The position numbers and the translations under genes were made by a program. DNA of 64,000 nt, from positions 128,001-192,000 of the forward strand of contig VMGC01000002.1 in assembly GCA_007376385.1 (NCBI GenBank), written 5' to 3'. A model generated the notes under the pieces. The model did no database searches, was not told where the DNA came from, and saw only the letters and a list, made by a program, of their open reading frames with translations. Below are positions 16,809 through 64,000 of this stretch, piece after piece. Within the stretch, counting starts at the first letter, position 1, and the number at the start of each line of letters is the position of its first letter. The stretch is from Parcubacteria group bacterium Gr01-1014_8 (GTDB lineage Bacteria > Patescibacteriota > Minisyncoccia > Phycocordibacterales > UBA2100).

Positions 16809-17243
16809 ATGGAAGACAGGCCCTTTGTCGGTATTGGCGTAACGATACTTAAAGATGGAAAAATTCTCCTCGGCAAAAGAGTATCAACGTATGGGACCGG
16901 AGAATATCAAACGCCTGGCGGACATCTTGAGCCTAAAGAAGCTTTTGAGGCATGTGCGCGGCGAGAAACCTTGGAGGAGTGCGGACTCGAAATAGGCTCA
17001 ATCCGTTTTCAATTTGTAGCAAATGCCGTAGGGTATGGTCTCGTGCATTACGTTCATATTGGTTTGATAACGGAATGGAAGGCAGGTGAACCTAAAAATC
17101 TTGAACCTACAAAATGCGAAGGATGGGATTGGTACTCTCTTGACGCATTGCCGGAGCCTCTTTTTGTATACACGAAATGGTCTATAGAGGCACATCAAAC
17201 AGGACTCAATTATTTCGATAGTGAGGCCCGACCAGCGAAATAA
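16809..17243 (+). CDS. NUDIX hydrolase
   Basis: Nudix box GGHLEPKEAFEACARRETLEECGL. Confidence 0.8.
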   Translation: MEDRPFVGIGVTILKDGKILLGKRVSTYGTGEYQTPGGHLEPKEAFEACARRETLEECGLEIGSIRFQFVANAVGYGLVHYVHIGLITEWKAGEPKNLEPTKCEGWDWYSLDALPEPLFVYTKWSIEAHQTGLNYFDSEARPAK

Positions 17244-17397
17244 AGGTTCCTCGGAGCTTGCTCCGAGGTATTATGGAGCTCGCTTCGCTCGCGCAGTCTC
17301 GCAGCAGAGCTGCGAGGTATTGAACCTGTGTTTGCTCCTCGGCACGGAAATGCAACAGAGTACTTTTGCATTTCTCTCGCAATGCTCGCAAATAAAA
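17242..17397 (+). repeat. Stop-codon-associated structured repeat (copy A)
   Basis: Starts at the NUDIX stop codon (TAAAGGTTCC). Contains a CCTCGGAGC-TT-GCTCCGAGG hairpin, then GAACCTGTGTTTGCTCCTCGGCACGGAAATG, and a terminal GAAATGCAA..TTGCATTTC hairpin. Reverse-complement match to 30611-30690. Confidence 0.65.
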
Positions 17398-17447
17398 TGT
17401 GAAGGCATCTTGACTCGATTTCGTGCACGGGTAGAGTATGGGGGTTC

Positions 17448-17642
17448 ATGAACGTCTCAAATAATGTACAGAAATTGCGTATGAATCGTGATCTCACGCA
17501 AGAAGCGCTGGCGGATAAGGTTGGTGTTTCGCGCCAAACGATTATTTCTATAGAGAAGGGGAATTACACACCCTCAGTCTTGCTTGCTTTGAAGATCGCA
17601 CGCATATTTAAAGTGCCTGTTGAGGACGTCTTTTACCTATGA
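17448..17642 (+). CDS. XRE-family helix-turn-helix transcriptional regulator
   Basis: LTQEALADKVGVSRQTIISIEKG HTH motif. Upstream TTGACT-17-TAGAGT promoter at 17410-17438. Confidence 0.8.
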   Translation: MNVSNNVQKLRMNRDLTQEALADKVGVSRQTIISIEKGNYTPSVLLALKIARIFKVPVEDVFYL

Positions 17643-18001
17643 ATTCACTTTTCATTCAGGTTGGTGTTGCTGTCGTTTTCATCGGGCTCCTCGTTGGACT
17701 TACCGATCCTTTTATGTACTGGATGCCCGATATGGCGGCATTAGTGGTACTCGTCGTCGCAGCTGCTCTTTCGGCGACGTGGGTAGGATTTGTTGCTCTT
17801 GAACAGAGGGGAGACGAACGTGAGGCGGGTCACCGACAATTTGCAGGACGTGCGGCGTACCTCTCAGGTATCGCGATACTAACGATCGCGTTGGTTGTTC
17901 AAGGCTTAGCGCACGTTATTGACTCCTGGATTTCGATGGCACTTGGTGCAATGGTTGTTGTGAAGCTTGTAGCTCGCTGGTTTGCGGATCGTTTTTACTA
18001 A
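17639..18001 (+). CDS. Hypothetical membrane protein, translationally coupled to the XRE regulator
   Basis: ATGA overlap with the XRE stop. Four hydrophobic segments. Confidence 0.45.
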   Translation: MNSLFIQVGVAVVFIGLLVGLTDPFMYWMPDMAALVVLVVAAALSATWVGFVALEQRGDEREAGHRQFAGRAAYLSGIAILTIALVVQGLAHVIDSWISMALGAMVVVKLVARWFADRFY

Positions 18002-18109
18002 ATTGGACACCGCGGCTATCCACATGTGCAATGTTAAGTGCACTTTACATATCACGATTTGTATATACACTATTCGTAATTAATCGAAATTCAGAAATAA
18101 CGTAACGTT

Positions 18110-18679
18110 ATGCAATACGGAATTATTGGTCTCATTGTGCTGGCAGTTCTTGGGGGAGGTTTCTATGTTTTTCTAGGCTCATCGCAGGATACGGCAATGG
18201 TGGAGAAAGAAAAGATGGAGAAGGATGCAATGATGCAGCAAGAGGTAATGGAAATGGAAAAGAAAGCTACGATGGAAAAGGAAGCAATGGAAAAAGAAGT
18301 AATGATGAAGGAAGAGGCGATGAAAAAAGATGACTCGATGATGGAGAAAGGTGATGCAATGATGGCGCACGGAGGCACCTATGAGGCGTATGCTCCTGAA
18401 AAGATCTCATGGGCAAAAGATGGTGACGTTGTTCTATTTTTCCGCGCATCGTGGTGCCCAACCTGCAGGGCAGTTGATGCGGACATTCGCTCGCATCTCT
18501 CCTCAATACCTAAGGATCTAACCATTCTCGACGTGAATTACGATAACTCGTCAGCACTGAAACAAAAATACGGCGTGACCTACCAGCACACCTTTGTGCA
18601 AGTGGATGCTTCGGGAAATCAGATCACGAAATGGAGTGGAAGCCCAACTCTTGCGGCACTTGTTTCTAATGTAAAATAG
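18110..18679 (+). CDS. Thioredoxin-fold protein with N-terminal TM anchor and a Met/Glu/Lys-rich low-complexity linker
   Basis: WCPTC redox motif. About 60 aa of M-rich repeats (MEKEAMEKEVMMKEEAMKKDDSMMEKGDAMM). A 15-nt perfect palindrome ATAACGTAACGTTAT overlaps the ATG. Confidence 0.7.
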   Translation: MQYGIIGLIVLAVLGGGFYVFLGSSQDTAMVEKEKMEKDAMMQQEVMEMEKKATMEKEAMEKEVMMKEEAMKKDDSMMEKGDAMMAHGGTYEAYAPEKISWAKDGDVVLFFRASWCPTCRAVDADIRSHLSSIPKDLTILDVNYDNSSALKQKYGVTYQHTFVQVDASGNQITKWSGSPTLAALVSNVK

Positions 18680-18683
18680 AAAC

Positions 18684-20450
18684 ATGGTTTTGCTCATCCT
18701 CTCGTTCGTAGCAGGTGTACTAACAGTACTTGCACCTTGTATACTTCCGCTTCTGCCCGTCATCATTGGCGGCTCACTTGATCCGATGCGACACGTGCGT
18801 TTAAAGCATGCCACAACGGTTGTGCTTTCGCTCGGTGTTTCCGTTATTGTCTTTACGTTTCTTTTGAAAGTGAGCACTGCTCTTATATCTGTCCCGCCGC
18901 AGGTTTGGACGTATCTTTCGGGAGGCATTGTCTTTTTTTTCGGATTGACCTTACTTTTTCCCGGACTCTGGGAACATGTGCCGTTCATCGCAAAACTTAG
19001 CAGCCGTTCGAACCGGCTGGTTTCGACTGGCTATCAGAGGAAGAGTTTTTGGGGAGACATTTTGATAGGCGCAGCACTCGGACCGGTATTTGCGACGTGT
19101 TCTCCCACATATTTCATAGTTCTCGCGACAGTATTGCCGCAAAGTCCTGTCCTCGGCTTTGTGTATGTATTGGCGTACGTTCTCGGACTTTGTCTGATGT
19201 TGCTTCTTATCGGTATCGTCGGCCAGCGTCTTGCGGATAGCCTCGGATTTGCTTCTGATCCGCACGGAAGTTTCAAGCGCATACTTGGCGTCATATTCAT
19301 GATAGTCGGGCTCGTGATCATTATGGGCTTCGATAAGAAATTTCAGATCAAGCTATTGGAGTGGGGTATATTCGATATTACCAAAGTGGAGCAGCGGCTG
19401 TTGCAACTCACTGATCCGAATGCAAAAGGACTTGTTCCGAGCCAATCCATTGCCATTTTGGATGAAGAAATGCGCATCGCGCAGAAAGAGAGGCTGTACG
19501 AACGAGCGCCAGAAATTCAAAATCCCGCTGGCTATGTGAACACTGGCGGCAGACCTGTCACCATCGGTGAATTCCGCGGGAAAAAAGTCGTGCTTCTCGA
19601 CATTTGGACCTACAGCTGCATAAATTGCCAGAGAACCATTCCCTACCTTAAGGCATGGCACGAGACGTACAATGATCAAGGATTACAGATAATCGGTATA
19701 CATACGCCGGAATTTGCGTTCGAGAAGGACGCAAAGAATGTCGAATGGGCAGTTCGGCAATTCGGGATCACGTATCCAAGTGTTCTGGATAACGATTATG
19801 AGACGTGGAAAGCACTCGGTAATAATTACTGGCCGCGAAAATATCTCGTGGACATCGATGGGTTCATTGTATACGACCATATTGGTGAGGGAAATTACGA
19901 GGAAACTGAAGCAGCGATCCAGAGGGCTCTGCAGGAGAGGGCGATGGTGGTGGGTAGTGAAATGCCTGGTAAAAAGATCGTCGCGGAAGAGATCCCTCAA
20001 GCTGATCTATCGGGAGTGCGTTCGCCGGAAACGTATTTTGGAGCTTTGCGAAACGAGAGTTTAGCCAATGGTGATCCGCAGACCATCGGTGTTGAAACGT
20101 ATATACTGCCAGAAAATATCATAGGAAATGCGCTCTATCTGGAAGGGATATGGGATTTGACCCCGGAATACGCGGGATCGAAGGGAAGGACAAAGATAGT
20201 CTACAAATATAATTCGCGGGATGTATACCTTGTGGCGAGTAGCGACAAAGGAGTGAAAATAACTGTCCTTCGAGATGGGAAGCCCGTTGGCGAATTTGCG
20301 GGTGCAGATATTGACCAGACAACAAGCACCGGGACGATCAAAGAAAACAAGCTGTACAAATTGGTGCATGACGATGAGCCAGGACAACATCTACTTGAAA
20401 TAGTCATAGAAGGCGAGGGGGTAAAGGCGTACGCGTTCACATTCGGTTGA
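18684..20450 (+). CDS. DipZ-like disulfide reductase: CcdA/DsbD transmembrane domain, thioredoxin-like (TlpA/ResA) domain and a C-terminal beta-rich domain
   Basis: TM region with APC and ATCSP cysteines, then LLDIWTYSCINCQ (CxxC redoxin), then a ~190-aa C-terminal domain. Confidence 0.75.
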   Translation: MVLLILSFVAGVLTVLAPCILPLLPVIIGGSLDPMRHVRLKHATTVVLSLGVSVIVFTFLLKVSTALISVPPQVWTYLSGGIVFFFGLTLLFPGLWEHVPFIAKLSSRSNRLVSTGYQRKSFWGDILIGAALGPVFATCSPTYFIVLATVLPQSPVLGFVYVLAYVLGLCLMLLLIGIVGQRLADSLGFASDPHGSFKRILGVIFMIVGLVIIMGFDKKFQIKLLEWGIFDITKVEQRLLQLTDPNAKGLVPSQSIAILDEEMRIAQKERLYERAPEIQNPAGYVNTGGRPVTIGEFRGKKVVLLDIWTYSCINCQRTIPYLKAWHETYNDQGLQIIGIHTPEFAFEKDAKNVEWAVRQFGITYPSVLDNDYETWKALGNNYWPRKYLVDIDGFIVYDHIGEGNYEETEAAIQRALQERAMVVGSEMPGKKIVAEEIPQADLSGVRSPETYFGALRNESLANGDPQTIGVETYILPENIIGNALYLEGIWDLTPEYAGSKGRTKIVYKYNSRDVYLVASSDKGVKITVLRDGKPVGEFAGADIDQTTSTGTIKENKLYKLVHDDEPGQHLLEIVIEGEGVKAYAFTFG

Positions 20451-31475: not shown

Positions 31476-32387
31476 ATGCAACATCTGATCGAAACCCAGC
31501 AGTTCGATAGAGAAGCTCTTAGCAAATTGTTTGCGCTTGCGACCACTCTTGAGGGGAAGCGCGAAGAATCACTCAAAGGCAAGATACTTGCCTCTCTTTT
31601 TTACGCACCGTCCACTCGAACGCGGCTTTCATTCGAATCAGCGATGATGCGGCTCGGAGGCAATGTTCTTTCGATGGAAAATGCAAGCGAATCATCGTCG
31701 GCAACAAAAGGCGAGACAATCGAAGACACGATACGCATCGTGGATGATTATGCCGACATTATCGTCCTCAGACACACGGAAGTCGGGACTGCGGCGAAGG
31801 CGGCAGCTGTCTCGGAAGTTCCCATTATCAATGCAGGAGATGGCATTGGACAACACCCGACGCAAGCGTTTCTCGATCTGTATACAATAGAGCGCGAAAT
31901 AGGGCGCACAGACGACTTCCACATTGCATTTGTGGGTAATCTTGCGTATTACCGGACCGCGCGTTCGCTTGCGTATCTTTTGGGAAAATACAATAAAGTA
32001 AAAATGACGTTTGTTTCTGCGCCGGAGCTCCGGATGAAAGATGATGTCAAGGATTATTTGAAGGAAAAAAATGTGCATTTTGAAGAAACGGAAGACTTGG
32101 AAAGCACGATGAAAGTAGCAGATGTGGTGTATCAAACGCGGGTAGCGGAAGAATGGATACCGAACGAGGAGGATTACAAAAAACTTCGCGACAAATACGT
32201 CATCACGCGCCCAATGACCGACGTAATGAAAGAGGGGGCCATCCTCATTCATCCTCTGCCCCGTGCCGGAGAAATAGCACCTGAAGTCGACGATTCGCCT
32301 CACGCTGTCTACTTCAAACAAGCGGGGTATGGTGTGCTTGTGCGCATGGCGCTATTGAAGCTCTTAGCCAATGGCGAGAAGGTGTAA
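31476..32387 (+). CDS. pyrB: Aspartate carbamoyltransferase catalytic subunit
   Basis: STRTRLSFE and HPTQAFLD motifs. GGAG lies 11 nt upstream of ATG 31476. Confidence 0.85.
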   Translation: MQHLIETQQFDREALSKLFALATTLEGKREESLKGKILASLFYAPSTRTRLSFESAMMRLGGNVLSMENASESSSATKGETIEDTIRIVDDYADIIVLRHTEVGTAAKAAAVSEVPIINAGDGIGQHPTQAFLDLYTIEREIGRTDDFHIAFVGNLAYYRTARSLAYLLGKYNKVKMTFVSAPELRMKDDVKDYLKEKNVHFEETEDLESTMKVADVVYQTRVAEEWIPNEEDYKKLRDKYVITRPMTDVMKEGAILIHPLPRAGEIAPEVDDSPHAVYFKQAGYGVLVRMALLKLLANGEKV

Positions 32388-32394
32388 TGCGCGT

Positions 32395-32802
32395 ATGCTT
32401 CGGACCGAAGAAGACTGGCAAAAAAAGCTGACTCCCGAGCAATATAAGATCTTACGCGAAAAGGGGACGGAAATGCCGTTCTCCGGAAAATTGCTGCATG
32501 AAGACCGCGACGGCATCTTTAAGTGTGCCGCTTGCGGCAATGCGCTCTTTGCCTCGGACGCAAAATTTGATTCAGGCACAGGCTGGCCAAGTTTTGACCA
32601 AGCGTTGCCTGGTGCTATCGAGCAGGTTCGCGATACGGCGCATCGGATGGAACGGACCGAGGTCGTATGCGCCCATTGCAAATCTCACTTGGGTCACGTA
32701 TTTGATGATGGTCCCACTAAAACGGGCAAACGGTATTGTTTGAACTCTGTGTGTCTGGGATTCGATACTACAGAAGCTCCATCAAACGGGGAACAAAAAT
32801 AA
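32395..32802 (+). CDS. msrB: Peptide-methionine (R)-S-oxide reductase
   Basis: Two CxxC pairs (CAACGN, CAHCKSH) and the catalytic RTEVVCAHC region. Typical MsrB start MLRTEEDWQKKLTPEQY. Confidence 0.85.
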   Translation: MLRTEEDWQKKLTPEQYKILREKGTEMPFSGKLLHEDRDGIFKCAACGNALFASDAKFDSGTGWPSFDQALPGAIEQVRDTAHRMERTEVVCAHCKSHLGHVFDDGPTKTGKRYCLNSVCLGFDTTEAPSNGEQK

Positions 32803-45894: not shown

Positions 45895-46068
45895 CACCAC
45901 TCCTTCGGGGTTGGGTGAAAGTCCCAATCGGCGGTATAGCCCGCGAGTTCTTAGGGACACGATTTGGTGAGATTCCAAAGCCGACCGTACAGTCGGGATG
46001 AAAGAAGGAAGCGAGGCACCCTTGTTGGATGCTTGCGTGGTAACCCCGATGGATCGGGGTTTTTTATT
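45895..46068 (+). ncRNA. FMN riboswitch (RFN element) with an SD-sequestering/terminator hairpin
   Basis: TCCTTCGGGGTTGGGTGAAAGTCCCAATCGGCGGTATAGCCCGCGAG...GGTGAGATTCCAAAGCCGACCGTACAGTCGGGATGAAAGAAGG matches the RFN core. Followed by CCCCGATGGATCGGGGTTTTTT, directly upstream of ribE. Confidence 0.85.
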
Positions 46069-54863: not shown

Positions 54864-55400
54864 ATGAAAACGGCTGTGTTTGGCGGCGGATGCTTTTGGT
54901 GCACTGAAGCGGTATTTCAAATGCTGAAGGGGGTAAACAAAGTCGAATCAGGCTATGCGGGTGGGTCAGTCGCGAACCCCTCGTACGAACGGGTTTCAAT
55001 GGGGAATACGGGCCATGCCGAGGTCATACGAGTAACCTATGACCCGGCTGTCATCACGTACGAGGACCTTCTGACGGTTTTTTTCGGTTCGCATGACCCG
55101 ACAACGCCGAATCGGCAGGGGAATGACGTTGGTGAGCAGTATCGTTCAGTGATTTTGTACCAAACGGACGACGAGAAAAATGTCGCAGAACGAGTTGCAA
55201 AAGAAATACAGGAGTCCTTGAAAGATAGTACGCGAGTCATTACGCAAATCAGTCCGCTGAAAGAATTTTATCCTGCGGAGGAATATCACAAGAATTACTA
55301 CAAACAAAATTCCTCCGCGCCGTATTGCATGCTCATCATCGAGCCGAAAGTCGAGAAAGTCCGGAAGCGATTTGCGCAGCTAGTTAACCCAGGCGCATAA
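54864..55400 (+). CDS. msrA: Peptide methionine sulfoxide reductase
   Basis: GGGCFWC active-site motif. Confidence 0.9.
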   Translation: MKTAVFGGGCFWCTEAVFQMLKGVNKVESGYAGGSVANPSYERVSMGNTGHAEVIRVTYDPAVITYEDLLTVFFGSHDPTTPNRQGNDVGEQYRSVILYQTDDEKNVAERVAKEIQESLKDSTRVITQISPLKEFYPAEEYHKNYYKQNSSAPYCMLIIEPKVEKVRKRFAQLVNPGA

Positions 55401-61544: not shown

Positions 61545-64000
61545 ATGATAGAATCATCAAAAAATTCAGAAGGGCCAGGCAAGATCATCGTAAAGGGGGC
61601 GAGGACGCATAACTTAAAAAATATCAGCGTCGAGATACCTCGTAATAAAATGGTCGTCTTTACGGGGCTCTCGGGAAGCGGGAAATCGTCGCTGGCATTC
61701 GACACAATTTTTGCTGAAGGCCAGCGTAAGTACGTGGAATCGCTTTCCGCTTACGCGAGGCAGTTCTTACGTCAAATGCAAAAGCCCGATGTTGACGAGA
61801 TCAGCGGTCTTTCTCCTGCCATCTCTATCGACCAAAAAAGCCGCTCAAATAATCCGCGCTCTACCGTTGCGACGATAACGGAAATTTACGATTACCTGCG
61901 CGTACTGTACTCGCGTGTCGGACATCCCCACTGTCCCGTCTGCGGCCGAATAGTAAAAAAAATGTCGAATGAGGAAATTCTTGAGACCGTTTTGAAGGTA
62001 GTCGATGCAGCAAAAGCTTCAAAAAATGTCCCCAAGGGTAAGCACACGAAGGGAGTAACGGACGCAAAGGTACGCATAACCGCTCCGGTTGTCGTCGGAC
62101 GAAAGGGTGAATATTACCAGCTTCTGTACGACATGTTGAACAAGGGTTTTGAGAAAGTCATCATCGATGGTGAGGAGAAATCACTACGTGAGCGCATTGA
62201 GCTAAAAAAACATTTCAAGCACGATATAGATGTCGTTGTTGATGAGATATTCGTGAGCGAGTTCAAGGATGATGCGAAAGGCTCTCGCGAACGAGCAAGT
62301 GAATCCATCGAGCGCGCGCTCCATGAAGCCGAGGGTCTCGTAAAAATAATCGATCCTGAGGGCGGTGCGCATATCGTATCCGCAAAATTCATGTGTCCGT
62401 ATGATGGCTTTTCATTTCCCGAAGTTGAACCTCGGCTTTTTTCGTTCAATTCTCCATACGGAGCCTGTCCCACGTGCAATGGCTTAGGAACCAAATATTT
62501 TTTTGGAGATGAGCAGTGCGATACATGTCAGGGCGCACGTCTCCGAAGCGAAGCGTTGCATGTGTTTCTTGGGAGCGAAAAAAAGGAAGGCGCGCGGCAG
62601 AATATCGTGCAAGTAACAAGCATGTCTATAGCGAATGCTCGTAAATTCTTCGACGAGCTGGTATTAACGGAAAAGGAAAAAGAAATATCAAAAGTCGTCA
62701 TAAAAGAAATAGTAAACCGGCTCCAATTCATGCTTGACGTCGGTATCGAATATCTGACGCTTGATAGACGGGCAAATACACTCTCTGGCGGCGAAGCGCA
62801 ACGGATCCGCCTTGCTTCACAGCTTGGGAGCGGGCTTGTGGGTGCGCTCTATGTCCTCGATGAGCCGACCATCGGTCTTCACCAAAAAGATAACGACAGG
62901 CTTATTGAGACGCTTAAACATCTCCGCGAACTGGGAAATACTGTGCTTGTCGTAGAACATGACGAGGATACGATATTTGCCGCCGATTACATTGTTGATC
63001 TGGGACCCGGCGCCGGCACGCACGGCGGGGAAATAGTCGTAGCAGGCTGGCTTGAAGAACTCTTGACCGCCAAGACGAATAAGTCGGGCTCTAGGACCTT
63101 GGCGTATCTTCGCGACGAAACTCGGATCGAAATGCCGGAAAAACGACGTACGAACGACAAGGGAAAAATAAAAATTCGCGGAGCATCAAAATTCAATCTT
63201 GAAAAAGTGAATGTAGACGTGCCGCTTGGAAAATTAGTTGTTATCACCGGCGTTTCCGGTAGCGGGAAATCAACTTTTTTGTACGAAATCATGCATCGGA
63301 ATTTACTCGCCAGATTCGATAAACGATTTCGAAATGCAAAAACCTACAACGCAGCAGAGTTTACTGGAACGGAATACCTGGGCCGTTCGATACTCATTGA
63401 CCAGTCGCCGATAGGCAGGACGCCGCGCTCAAATCCCGCGACCTATACGGGGGCGTTCACGCATATTCGAGACATGTTCGCGATGAGCGAAGAGGCGCGT
63501 GCGCGCGGATGGGGGCCAGGCAGGTTCAGTTTTAACCGCAAGGGCGGGCGATGCGAAGCGTGCGAAGGGAACGGCATGGTCGCCGTTGAGATGCACTTTT
63601 TGCCGACGGTGTATGTCACGTGCGATGTGTGCGCAGGAAGACGTTTTATGAAGGAAACGCTTGAGGTGAAATTCAAGAAAAAAAGCATACACGATATTTT
63701 GAAGATGACCGTCGAGGAAGCGCTTACGTTTTTTACTGACATTCCAGCCATATCAGACCGCCTTAAAACGTTGAGCAATGTTGGACTTGGTTATCTTCAA
63801 TTGGGGCAGAGCGCAACGACACTCTCCGGCGGCGAAGCGCAACGCGTAAAAATAGCGTCGGAGTTGTATCGTCCGCATCAGACAAAAACGATGTACCTCT
63901 TGGACGAACCAACCGTCGGACTTCACTATGACGATGTGCAGAAGCTCATCGAAATTCTCCAACGACTCGTTGAGAGAGGGAACTCGGTAGTCGTTATCGA
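61545..64000 (+). CDS. uvrA: Excinuclease ABC subunit A (5' part; continues beyond the window)
   Basis: GLSGSGKSSLAFDTIFAEGQRKYVESLSAYARQFL, zinc-finger CxxC pairs and a second ABC module (GVSGSGKST). No stop before the window end. Confidence 0.95.
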   Translation, partial: MIESSKNSEGPGKIIVKGARTHNLKNISVEIPRNKMVVFTGLSGSGKSSLAFDTIFAEGQRKYVESLSAYARQFLRQMQKPDVDEISGLSPAISIDQKSRSNNPRSTVATITEIYDYLRVLYSRVGHPHCPVCGRIVKKMSNEEILETVLKVVDAAKASKNVPKGKHTKGVTDAKVRITAPVVVGRKGEYYQLLYDMLNKGFEKVIIDGEEKSLRERIELKKHFKHDIDVVVDEIFVSEFKDDAKGSRERASESIERALHEAEGLVKIIDPEGGAHIVSAKFMCPYDGFSFPEVEPRLFSFNSPYGACPTCNGLGTKYFFGDEQCDTCQGARLRSEALHVFLGSEKKEGARQNIVQVTSMSIANARKFFDELVLTEKEKEISKVVIKEIVNRLQFMLDVGIEYLTLDRRANTLSGGEAQRIRLASQLGSGLVGALYVLDEPTIGLHQKDNDRLIETLKHLRELGNTVLVVEHDEDTIFAADYIVDLGPGAGTHGGEIVVAGWLEELLTAKTNKSGSRTLAYLRDETRIEMPEKRRTNDKGKIKIRGASKFNLEKVNVDVPLGKLVVITGVSGSGKSTFLYEIMHRNLLARFDKRFRNAKTYNAAEFTGTEYLGRSILIDQSPIGRTPRSNPATYTGAFTHIRDMFAMSEEARARGWGPGRFSFNRKGGRCEACEGNGMVAVEMHFLPTVYVTCDVCAGRRFMKETLEVKFKKKSIHDILKMTVEEALTFFTDIPAISDRLKTLSNVGLGYLQLGQSATTLSGGEAQRVKIASELYRPHQTKTMYLLDEPTVGLHYDDVQKLIEILQRLVERGNSVVVI

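Follow-up and report, generated by a model that had tools for sequence, protein, structure and literature searches.

A block of four co-directional genes in the genome of Parcubacteria group bacterium Gr01-1014_8 raises the question of whether its members belong together and, if they do, what they accomplish as a unit. The genes fill positions 17448-20450 of the stretch of 64,000 nucleotides that was analysed for this report (contig VMGC01000002.1, positions 128,001 to 192,000 of the forward strand; referred to below as the window) and are predicted to encode a helix-turn-helix (HTH) protein of the XRE/Cro type, a small membrane protein, a membrane-anchored thioredoxin with a methionine-rich tether, which we designate TrxM, and a DipZ-like protein (Table 1). 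Parcubacteria and other bacteria of the candidate phyla radiation (CPR) are tiny, mostly uncultured organisms that have long been seen as anaerobic fermenters with few stress systems. The best explanation for the observations described here is that the four genes constitute a self-contained, two-promoter stress cassette of Parcubacteria. At a probability of about 0.5, we further propose that this cassette is a stress-derepressed extracytoplasmic antioxidant and methionine sulfoxide relay, in which the XRE protein and its membrane partner would control the production of TrxM and DipZ.

An alignment-driven scan that used one genome per species detected a relative of the thioredoxin in at least 540 genomes, and 80 loci, all from Patescibacteria and mostly from Parcubacteria/Paceibacteria, were kept for comparison. 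When these loci were searched with the window proteins (tblastn), DipZ was found in 76 of the 80, the membrane protein in 68 and the XRE gene, directly upstream, in 67, and the order XRE, membrane protein, TrxM, DipZ and the common strand were always the same. Synteny of the whole cassette is kept in ~67 of the 80 related genomes, whereas the outer neighbours that it has in the window (IMPase, DUF378, NUDIX and an HD-like protein) are either absent from the 80 loci or present in no more than two of them. Because the synteny is kept while the outer neighbours differ, the first-pass annotation of this DNA was right to group the four genes into one module. All four are real genes, and TrxM is 100% identical to the protein G01um10148_545. 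No description of the cassette in CPR bacteria was found in the literature searched, the coverage of which is incomplete, so that its absence there is not proven. If the proposed reading is true, the occurrence of the cassette in at least 540 species-level genomes would represent a widely shared surface defence against oxidants, with a bearing on the persistence of CPR bacteria in oxic groundwater and soils.

The inverted repeat at both promoters and the regulatory pair

When the sequences in front of the Trx and XRE start codons were aligned, both sets proved to share a 20-bp inverted repeat, for which the consensus derived from 102 sites is ATGTAAAGT-NN-ACTTTACAT. The loose pattern GTNAAG-N4-CTTNAC, with which the 80 loci and the window were searched, gave these 102 matches, nearly all of them upstream of XRE or TrxM genes; at least one copy exists in 70 of the 80 loci, and conservation amounts to 85-92% at operator positions that the pattern does not cover. 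The -35 hexamer (TTTACA or TTGACA) is part of the right arm, and a -10 sequence of the form TAnnnT follows this embedded -35 at a distance of 16-17 nt in 92 of the 102 sites. Exact matches to the pattern occur only twice in the 64-kb window, as the two copies listed in Table 1. The degenerate copy in front of the XRE gene is likely to be a site of autoregulation, and most related loci have an equivalent of the second copy, ~60-100 nt ahead of the start codon for Trx. Since the operator overlaps the -35 element at both promoters, the cassette can be divided into two transcription units, xre-membrane and trxM-dipZ. An operator-like site with one mismatch to the pattern (TTGAAGAACTCTTGAC, window positions 63052-63067) is probably meaningless, because 1.4 such sites are expected by chance.

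The XRE promoter had been read earlier as TTGACT-17-TAGAGT; both hexamers are as described, and the spacer between them is 16 nt, not 17. As only 10 nt separate the -10 element from the ATG of the XRE gene, the leader of its mRNA must be very short or missing altogether. Matching to promoter consensus sequences performs on its own at the level of chance in this region (4 promoter-like sites as compared with 5.0 expected), and it is the conservation of the -35/-10 arrangement across related loci that supports the XRE promoter despite this. In the 5' untranslated region of trxM, the heptamer TAATTAA is present at window positions 18085-18091 and recurs in 18 of 68 related Trx leaders, while Shine-Dalgarno-like sequences (GGAG, AGGA or GAGG) are found in no more than 3 of the 68. 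This heptamer could be a second control element or could merely reflect an AT-rich leader.

A different control site had been suggested by the first-pass annotation, namely the 15-nt palindrome ATAACGTAACGTTAT, which consists of two 7-nt arms around a central A. The palindrome does exist and does overlap the ATG of trxM, and a similar ACGT-rich stretch can be seen in one related locus (L051), but little else speaks for the idea that the XRE protein represses trxM from this position. Palindromes of the 7-1-7 type are as frequent in the window as would be expected by chance (5, as compared with 3.5 +/- 1.4 in shuffled sequences), this one is absent from the corresponding position in the ~66 other aligned Trx upstream regions, and no copy of it is present upstream of the XRE gene. 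It is a different repeat, the 20-bp element, that has been conserved at the two promoters and that accompanies XRE homologues in different phyla. We therefore reject the palindrome as the XRE operator and consider its involvement in repression to be extremely improbable; judged by the conservation of the sequences, the 20-bp inverted repeat is the true operator.

The earlier identification of an XRE-type HTH gene, described as translationally coupled to a membrane-protein gene, is borne out by the PF01381 match of the former, and the stop and start codons of the two genes overlap in an ATGA. Comparison with the PDB relates the XRE protein to CylR2 (1utx, E=2.1e-11 over residues 3-62) and to a PbsX-family protein (9k3w, E=5e-14, full length). 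In Enterococcus faecalis, CylR2 is the promoter-binding repressor of cytolysin and the membrane protein CylR1 is required for induction (PMC3709268). The pair in the window resembles this system in having a ~65-residue, HTH-only homologue of the repressor (E=2e-11), a candidate binding site in the form of a 9-2-9 inverted repeat that lies over the -35 element at both promoters, and a small multi-pass membrane protein encoded alongside. It departs from CylR2/CylR1 in that the membrane partner, a probable DUF2178-type protein, has four predicted helices, whereas CylR1 has three; in that the order of the two genes is reversed relative to cylR1-cylR2; and in that redox and chaperone genes appear as targets. 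The signal in the enterococcal case is a lantibiotic subunit. The XRE protein is presumed from these similarities to be a repressor that binds the inverted repeat, and the membrane partner is presumed, by analogy with CylR1/CylR2 and SigF/NrsF, to be a signal sensor or an anti-repressor.

The loops of the membrane partner that are predicted to lie outside the cell read DPFMYWMPDM and QGLAHVIDSW in the window protein and its cytoplasmic loop reads GDEREAGHRQFAGR; their equivalents are conserved at the level of the family as NPFxFWMPDM and QGxxHxxDPW (outward) and DERDxxHRxxAGR (cytoplasmic), with P24, W28, M29, D59-E60-R61, R71, D95 and W97 as conserved columns. An AlphaFold2 model built with homologues places helices at residues 3-22, 32-52, 63-91 and 96-119 (predicted local distance difference test [pLDDT] score 64). 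Assignment to DUF2178 (PF09946) comes by way of relatives: a Pfam scan gave no match to this family for the window protein or for 20 of its relatives, and Pfam and NCBIfam together gave nothing significant for the window protein, but many of its close homologues carry a precomputed PF09946 assignment and, among the metagenome matches listed (see below), two membrane partners of operator-linked XRE genes match the family at 4e-13.

The operator extends beyond the cassette. When metagenome contigs were scanned for exact copies of the 20-mer, at least 120 stretches came up; tens of chance matches are expected, by a rough estimate, for an AT-rich 20-mer, and so only recurrent categories were used. 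Among the matches listed, to which all of the following counts and examples refer, 23 operator sites adjoin XRE homologues and 20 adjoin TrxM. The contigs in which the 20-mer stands beside an XRE homologue range from 25 to 68% GC, and since chance can hardly account for such an AT-rich sequence next to an XRE homologue where the contig has 68% GC, the operator travels with its regulator. The recurrent families among the longer open reading frames (ORFs) that flank the sites are Thioredoxin (16), HSP70 (6), HSP20 (3) and Cpn10 (2). The exact 20-mer is found upstream of dnaK (L142, L145, L161 and L169) and groES (L135 and L179), usually just past a TTGACA, and it also flanks hsp20 genes; the dnaK product of L145 is 100% identical to a protein of Patescibacteria, and its relatives are from Berkelbacteria. 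The window itself contains no chaperone genes. The common theme of the operator-linked genes is the repair of damaged proteins, and their nature suggests a role for this type of XRE protein as a heat-shock-like regulator of CPR bacteria. Together with its cognate repressor and membrane partner, the operator might make it possible to predict CPR stress regulons, those of dnaK, groES and hsp20 included, from the sequences of organisms that cannot be cultured.

The same metagenome matches include operator sites that precede genes for small, unrelated membrane proteins, which are followed by an XRE homologue with 44-56% identity to that of the window. Such membrane-first pairs, in which the gene order is that of cylR1-cylR2, were noted in L088, L103, L134, L144, L157, L158 and L182, as well as in L093 (68% GC) and L139 (61% GC).

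TrxM, its methionine-rich tether and DipZ

The first-pass annotation had described TrxM as a membrane-anchored WCPTC thioredoxin with a linker that is about one-quarter methionine, and the PF00085 match, the single transmembrane (TM) helix and the count of 15 Met in 60 residues agree with that description. Its placement of the thioredoxin outside the cytoplasm also held up: the N-terminal flank of the TM helix has a net charge of +0.84 and the C-terminal flank one of -0.87, lipoprotein boxes are present in 18 of 150 TrxM relatives, and the thioredoxin domain is accordingly predicted to face outward. AlphaFold2 models residues 90-189 with pLDDT values of at least 96 and renders the tether as a long helix of low confidence (pLDDT ~50). 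The best Foldseek matches to TrxM are classical thioredoxins, with TM-scores to the target of up to 0.77. No Sco protein is among the top 50 of these matches and the active site is CxxC rather than CxxxC, so that a Sco/SenC-like fold for TrxM was rejected.

The tether is conserved in composition and not in sequence or length. It was detected in all 120 of the closest TrxM homologues, with variable length and sequence. Among 117 single-domain representatives of the wider family, the linker contains at least 10% Met in ~60% and less than 6% in ~23%, a division that argues for selection of the methionine tract in many lineages and against an essential role of the tract in the domain. Across 151 tethers rich in methionine, Met accounts for 21% of the residues, Lys for 16%, Glu for 14%, Asp for 11% and Ala for 11%; Lys, Glu, Asp and Arg add up to 42%, and His makes up only 0.2%. 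Methionines occur as MM doublets every 5-7 residues, such that Met-Met spacings of i+1, i+6/7 and i+11/12 are enriched (z up to +20) and spacings of i+2, i+3 and i+4 are nearly absent (45, 9 and 29 observed, respectively, as compared with ~410 expected; z ~ -23). Such spacing fits a putative repeat of the form (D/E)(A/S/T)-M-M-(K/E)-K.

Since the spacings required for the MxM and MxxM motifs of Cu(I) sites are almost absent, such motifs can be excluded from the tethers, which thereby lack the MxM/MxxM/MxxxM clusters, often accompanied by His, that characterize proteins of the Ctr1, CopA/PcoA and CusF type. The spacing, the scarcity of His and the lack of copper-related genes among the immediate neighbours all go against the earlier suggestion that the tether is a Cu(I)-binding arm. 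The tether does have the composition (~20% Met, more than 40% charged residues, exported) of MrpX, a similarity that concerns composition only and not homology. MrpX of Azospira suillum is a periplasmic protein with 20% Met and 44% charged residues and a proven sink for hypochlorite that is recycled by a periplasmic methionine sulfoxide reductase (Msr) (PMC4436054). A few relatives of TrxM (L068:6515-7411, P0088, P0134 and P0206) have a tether that is interrupted by an extra domain of ~110 residues, marked by a PAHIHxGxC motif; this domain matches no Pfam family, and its identification as a CHRD domain or as one resembling Cu/Zn superoxide dismutase is unsupported.

The first-pass annotation missed that TrxM lacks the cis-proline of the thioredoxin fold. 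This residue starts beta-strand 3 and has been described as more conserved than the CxxC motif itself (PMC2757866); it is also reported to keep the CxxC thiolates from binding metals (Su et al. 2007, by way of PMC2757866 and PMC2665069). TrxM has the thioredoxin fold and the WCxxC motif, but Gln159-His160-Thr161 occupies the cis-Pro loop, and HMMER aligns its 'vtyqhtf' with 'VTAMPTF' of thioredoxin 2vim in such a way that His falls on the cis-Pro position. In an alignment of 70 TrxM sequences, W115, C116, P117, C119, Y144, Q159, H160, T161, K174 and W175 are invariant, and Gln159-His160-Thr161 is invariant as well in an alignment of 20 homologues. At E<=1e-10, the family of TrxM-type domains comprises 2423 representative clusters. 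Most of the 150 best representatives have His at the cis-Pro position, some tandem two- and three-domain relatives have Ser or Thr, and none was seen to have Pro. A large natural family of thioredoxins without this near-universal residue provides a test of ideas about its role. The trx domain of DipZ, unlike TrxM, retains the cis-proline (in YWP). Two or three TrxM-type domains in tandem are found in P0121-P0130 and other proteins, some of which are lipoproteins; their active sites include CGTC, CPSC and CSSC, and several have Ser or Thr in place of His at the cis-Pro position.

The second redox protein of the cassette corresponds well to what had been described as a fusion of CcdA, a thioredoxin and a C-terminal domain, reminiscent of mycobacterial DipZ. 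It contains a CcdA domain with two cysteines (Cys19 in LAPCILP and Cys139 in FATCSPTY), a TlpA/ResA-like domain with a CxxC motif and a complete PF17991 domain, which together are the features by which a DipZ can be recognized. The match to DipZ of Mycobacterium tuberculosis (Rv2874; structures 2hyx and 5cyy) extends over residues 246-535 with E=6.3e-57 (2hyx), the motif YSCINCQR is identical and the architecture of CcdA, Trx-like and C-terminal domains is the same. To our knowledge, the function of M. tuberculosis DipZ is still undefined, and we know of no mycobacterial dipZ next to genes for a Met-rich thioredoxin or for an XRE/DUF2178 pair. The Trx-like domain of DipZ is also homologous to the modules of Arabidopsis SOQ1 (7djj, E=2e-21) and human NHLRC2 (6gc1, E=4e-20), in which the related motif is CCINC, but the protein in the window has no NHL propeller and no cysteines in its C-terminal domain. 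According to a preprint, SOQ1 has a methionine sulfoxide reductase activity that is fed by its DipZ-type Trx domain, with electrons proposed to come from CcdA (bioRxiv 10.1101/2024.11.01.621559). The Cys-pair Msr mechanism that has been proposed for the SOQ1 C-terminal domain was considered for DipZ and rejected, as the corresponding domain here is devoid of Cys.

Table 1. Features of the four-gene cassette and of the msr genes in the window (E-values after family names; "." marks features without strand)
Feature	Position in window	Strand	Details
Operator copy 1, ATGTGAAGGCATCTTGACTC	17397..17416	.	Degenerate; overlaps -35 of XRE promoter; repeat upstream of XRE in most related loci
XRE promoter	17410..17437	+	-35 TTGACT 17410-17415, 16-nt spacer, -10 TAGAGT 17432-17437
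XRE/Cro-type HTH protein, 64 aa	17448..17642	+	CylR2-like; PF01381 E=5.6e-16
Membrane partner, 120 aa	17639..18001	+	Four predicted helices, probable DUF2178 type; ATG overlaps XRE stop codon (ATGA)
Operator copy 2, ATGTTAAGTGCACTTTACAT	18031..18050	.	17/18 specified consensus positions; overlaps -35 of trxM-dipZ promoter
trxM-dipZ promoter	18044..18071	+	-35 TTTACA 18044-18049, 16-nt spacer, -10 TACACT 18066-18071; promoter scan
Palindrome ATAACGTAACGTTAT	18097..18111	.	Two 7-nt arms around central A; overlaps trxM ATG by 2 nt
TrxM, 189 aa	18110..18679	+	PF00085 (8.8e-10); WCPTC; one N-terminal TM helix
TrxM TM anchor	18119-18175	+	Residues 4-22
TrxM Met-rich Lys/Glu/Asp tether	18194-18373	+	Residues 29-88; 15 Met/60 residues = 25%
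TrxM classical thioredoxin domain	18374-18676	+	Residues 89-189
TrxM active site W-C116-P-T-C119	18455-18466	+	
TrxM Gln159-His160-Thr161	18587-18589 (His)	+	At cis-Pro loop position; alignments
DipZ-like protein, 588 aa	18684..20450	+	Starts 5 nt past trxM stop codon
DipZ CcdA membrane domain	18684-19328	+	Residues ~1-215; DsbD_2 PF13386 7.6e-07, PF02683 1.1e-04
DipZ TlpA/ResA-like Trx domain	19506-19913	+	Residues 275-410; S-C312-I-N-C315; Redoxin 1.6e-13
DipZ C-terminal Thioredoxin_10 domain	20022-20447	+	Residues 447-588; no Cys; PF17991 E=2.3e-31, model 1-142/142
msrB	32371-32802		Elsewhere in window
msrA	54864-55400		Elsewhere in window

Methionine sulfoxide reductases, the proposed relay and its alternatives

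The first-pass annotation had pointed out msrA and msrB genes elsewhere in the window, and they are indeed present, 12-35 kb from the cassette. Neither product has a signal or TM segment, from which we conclude that both are cytoplasmic, and neither gene has an operator site, so that the notion of these two enzymes as the outside partners of a relay did not hold. The link to Msr emerges from the related genomes. When the two ORFs that come next downstream of the cassette were classified with Pfam (145 proteins), SelR/MsrB (17) and PMSR/MsrA (12) were by far the commonest families, followed by DM13 (5) and Gmad2 (4), with all others at 3 or fewer; a census of upstream neighbours showed nothing comparable to this enrichment. 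In three loci, a CcdA-MsrA-MsrB fusion of ~600 residues directly follows TrxM and replaces DipZ (L037:7548-9359, L057:7554-9359 and L069:7530-9338); a fusion of Trx, MsrA and MsrB is familiar from PilB of Neisseria. In another (L012:3439-6878), a TM-anchored MsrA-MsrB of 435 residues, a VTT/DedA protein and a pyridine-nucleotide disulfide oxidoreductase are encoded in an insert that separates trxM from the xre-membrane unit. This insert has a third operator copy in front of it, and the DipZ of the same locus lacks its C-terminal domain and is followed by a DM13 protein. A TM-anchored MsrAB is encoded after DipZ in L062 and a TM-anchored MsrB directly after TrxM in L046. The variants in these six loci tie TrxM and CcdA to the reduction of methionine sulfoxide outside the cytoplasm.

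Comparative genomics thus lends substance to the analogy that had been drawn with the CcdA-Etrx-MsrAB system, since no family is found downstream as often as MsrB and MsrA, and since both CcdA-MsrAB fusions and TM-anchored MsrAB exist within the cassette. In Streptococcus pneumoniae, CcdA1/2, Etrx1/2 and MsrAB2 form a surface antioxidant relay (PMC3914529). The Parcubacteria cassette is similar in that a CcdA conduit and an exported partner with a thioredoxin fold are encoded together (trxM and dipZ, 5 nt apart in the window and paired in 76 of 80 loci), and in that surface-exposed MsrA or MsrB are linked to them in six related loci, although not in the window. The differences are that TrxM belongs to the classical thioredoxins and is held by a TM anchor, instead of being a TlpA/ResA-type lipoprotein; that it has a Met-rich tether and no cis-proline; that CcdA is fused to the DipZ ectodomain; and that the cassette in the window has no exported Msr and an XRE/DUF2178 pair as its regulator.

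According to the relay that we propose, the XRE repressor and its membrane partner of probable DUF2178 type would be made from one transcript, and an XRE dimer would bind ATGTAAAGT-NN-ACTTTACAT over the -35 elements of its own promoter and of the trxM-dipZ promoter. The membrane partner might sense damage to the envelope, for which its conserved outward Trp-Met-Pro and His/Asp/Trp loops are candidate sensors, and repression would then be lifted. TrxM would be held by its one helix with the thioredoxin domain outside, and the ~60-residue tether might take up oxidants in the form of methionine sulfoxide. Electrons from cytoplasmic thioredoxin might pass by way of the CcdA cysteines of DipZ to its own CINC domain and to TrxM, and the reduced thiols might repair oxidised surface proteins. 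Where exported MsrA or MsrB are present, as in some relatives, the thiols might also drive the reduction of methionine sulfoxide, that of the tether included. If this is true, the cassette would exemplify a natural protein design, the fusion of a sacrificial methionine sink with its own reductant. A parallel to this arrangement is the MrpX - YedY/MsrP - SigF/NrsF system of A. suillum (PMC4436054), with which the cassette shares an exported polypeptide of ~20% Met and more than 40% charged residues (with the role of a sacrificial sink proposed here), a regulator gene paired with that of a multi-pass membrane partner and a small dedicated regulon. Unlike MrpX, the Met-rich module of TrxM shares its polypeptide with a membrane anchor and a thioredoxin; the reducing power would come through the thiols of CcdA/DipZ and not from a molybdoenzyme with YedZ; and the regulator would be a repressor and not a sigma/anti-sigma pair.

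CcdA/Trx pairs commonly carry out general thiol reduction, and TrxM and DipZ might likewise be a generic extracytoplasmic pair of disulfide reductases or isomerases, in the manner of CcdA-ResA or TlpA, that maintains the cysteines of surface or pilus proteins in the reduced state and for which the Met tract is a mere spacer, flexible or helical, that holds the Trx domain away from the membrane and has no redox role. The variability of the linkers in length and sequence would be in keeping with a spacer, as would the long low-confidence helix predicted for the tether and the existence of linkers rich in Ser, Thr, Glu or Pro and nearly without Met in ~23% of the representatives. Typical proteins contain ~2% Met, however, and the content of at least 10% in ~60% of the representatives, together with the strictness of the spacing, is more than a spacer would call for. 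Msr genes dominate the neighbourhood of the cassette, MsrAB takes the place of the DipZ ectodomain in some genomes, and a plain reductase would be expected to keep its cis-proline (PMC2757866); on balance, we regard the generic pair as unlikely. The missing cis-proline would be put to use if the cassette were concerned with copper, such that the Met arm takes up Cu(I), the CxxC and His of TrxM form a Sco-like Cys2His site and DipZ acts as its reductant, by analogy with ScsB/ScsC. Tracts rich in Met are well-known ligands of Cu(I), and a few loci have, within 7 kb, genes that resemble those of P-type ATPases or DUF305 proteins by motif matches only. The residue that is reported in the passages that cite Su et al. 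2007 (PMC2757866, PMC2665069) to block metal binding by CxxC is replaced here by a potential ligand, His. The methionines are nevertheless wrongly spaced for Cu(I) sites (only 45, 9 and 29 pairs at spacings of 2, 3 and 4 where ~410 are expected), His makes up 0.2% of the tether, the multi-domain relatives have Ser or Thr in place of the His of TrxM, and the motif is CxxC and not the CxxxC of Sco. No copper family is among the frequent immediate neighbours in the upstream or downstream census, and a role in copper handling seems improbable to us.

An equally improbable possibility is that TrxM is itself a new reductase of methionine sulfoxide or sulfenate, built on the thioredoxin fold, that draws on DipZ for electrons, restores its own tether in cis and needs no exterior MsrA, MsrB or MsrP. 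The candidate site would consist of Cys116 and Cys119 with Gln159-His160, Tyr144 and Trp175, and the invariant Tyr, His, Gln and Trp do appear to line the active site when TrxM is aligned with E. coli thioredoxin. Such an activity would account for a Met tether that is conserved although the cassette of this genome, like most, has no exported Msr, and the non-canonical Msr activity reported for the Trx-like and C-terminal module of SOQ1 involves a Trx domain of the DipZ type. We know of no Msr with a thioredoxin fold, however, and the replacement of His by Ser or Thr in multi-domain relatives does not favour a catalytic role for it; moreover, the retention of TrxM in genomes in which MsrAB is fused to CcdA is better explained if TrxM is an electron carrier or a substrate. 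If TrxM were such an enzyme, minimal cells would own a complete, membrane-tethered catalytic sink for oxidants without any exterior MsrA, MsrB or MsrP.

The relay that we favour over these alternatives has several observations to contend with. The invariant His at the cis-Pro position has no place in it, and this substitution keeps alive, as minority readings, a metal site and a new catalytic activity. Linkers with less than 6% Met in ~23% of the representatives indicate that the Met tract is dispensable for the Trx domain. No recognisable exported Msr is encoded in the cassette of this genome, a clearly exported Msr is found in only six of the 80 related loci (L012, L037, L046, L057, L062 and L069), and most of the msr genes that adjoin the cassette in relatives appear to encode cytoplasmic enzymes. 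The mechanism proposed for the C-terminal domain of SOQ1 is not directly transferable, because the C-terminal domain of DipZ has no Cys. As for regulation, an operator that is centred near -40 would be compatible with activation as well as with repression, and some of the operator matches in the metagenomes might be due to chance, given the AT-richness of the 20-mer.

Smaller features in and around the cassette

Proteins of the DM13 ("electron transfer") type are encoded near the cassette in several relatives, five of them downstream and three upstream (examples include L012:9034-9609 and L057:10029-11036), and L057 carries a fusion of MsrA, a TM segment and DM13. In the window, the sequence that separates the NUDIX gene from the XRE operator (17240-17400, + strand) can form several hairpins, with a minimum free energy of -56.7 kcal/mol and z = -2.6 relative to shuffled sequences. 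One of them, CCTCGGAGC-TTG-CTCCGAGG, stands immediately 3' of the NUDIX stop codon. These hairpins are probably terminators; they have no match in Rfam, and a scan of the window placed no Rfam family within the region of the cassette. The sole Rfam family to reach its gathering score in the window is the flavin mononucleotide (FMN) riboswitch RF00050, at 45897-46013 on the + strand (104 bits, E=4e-23).

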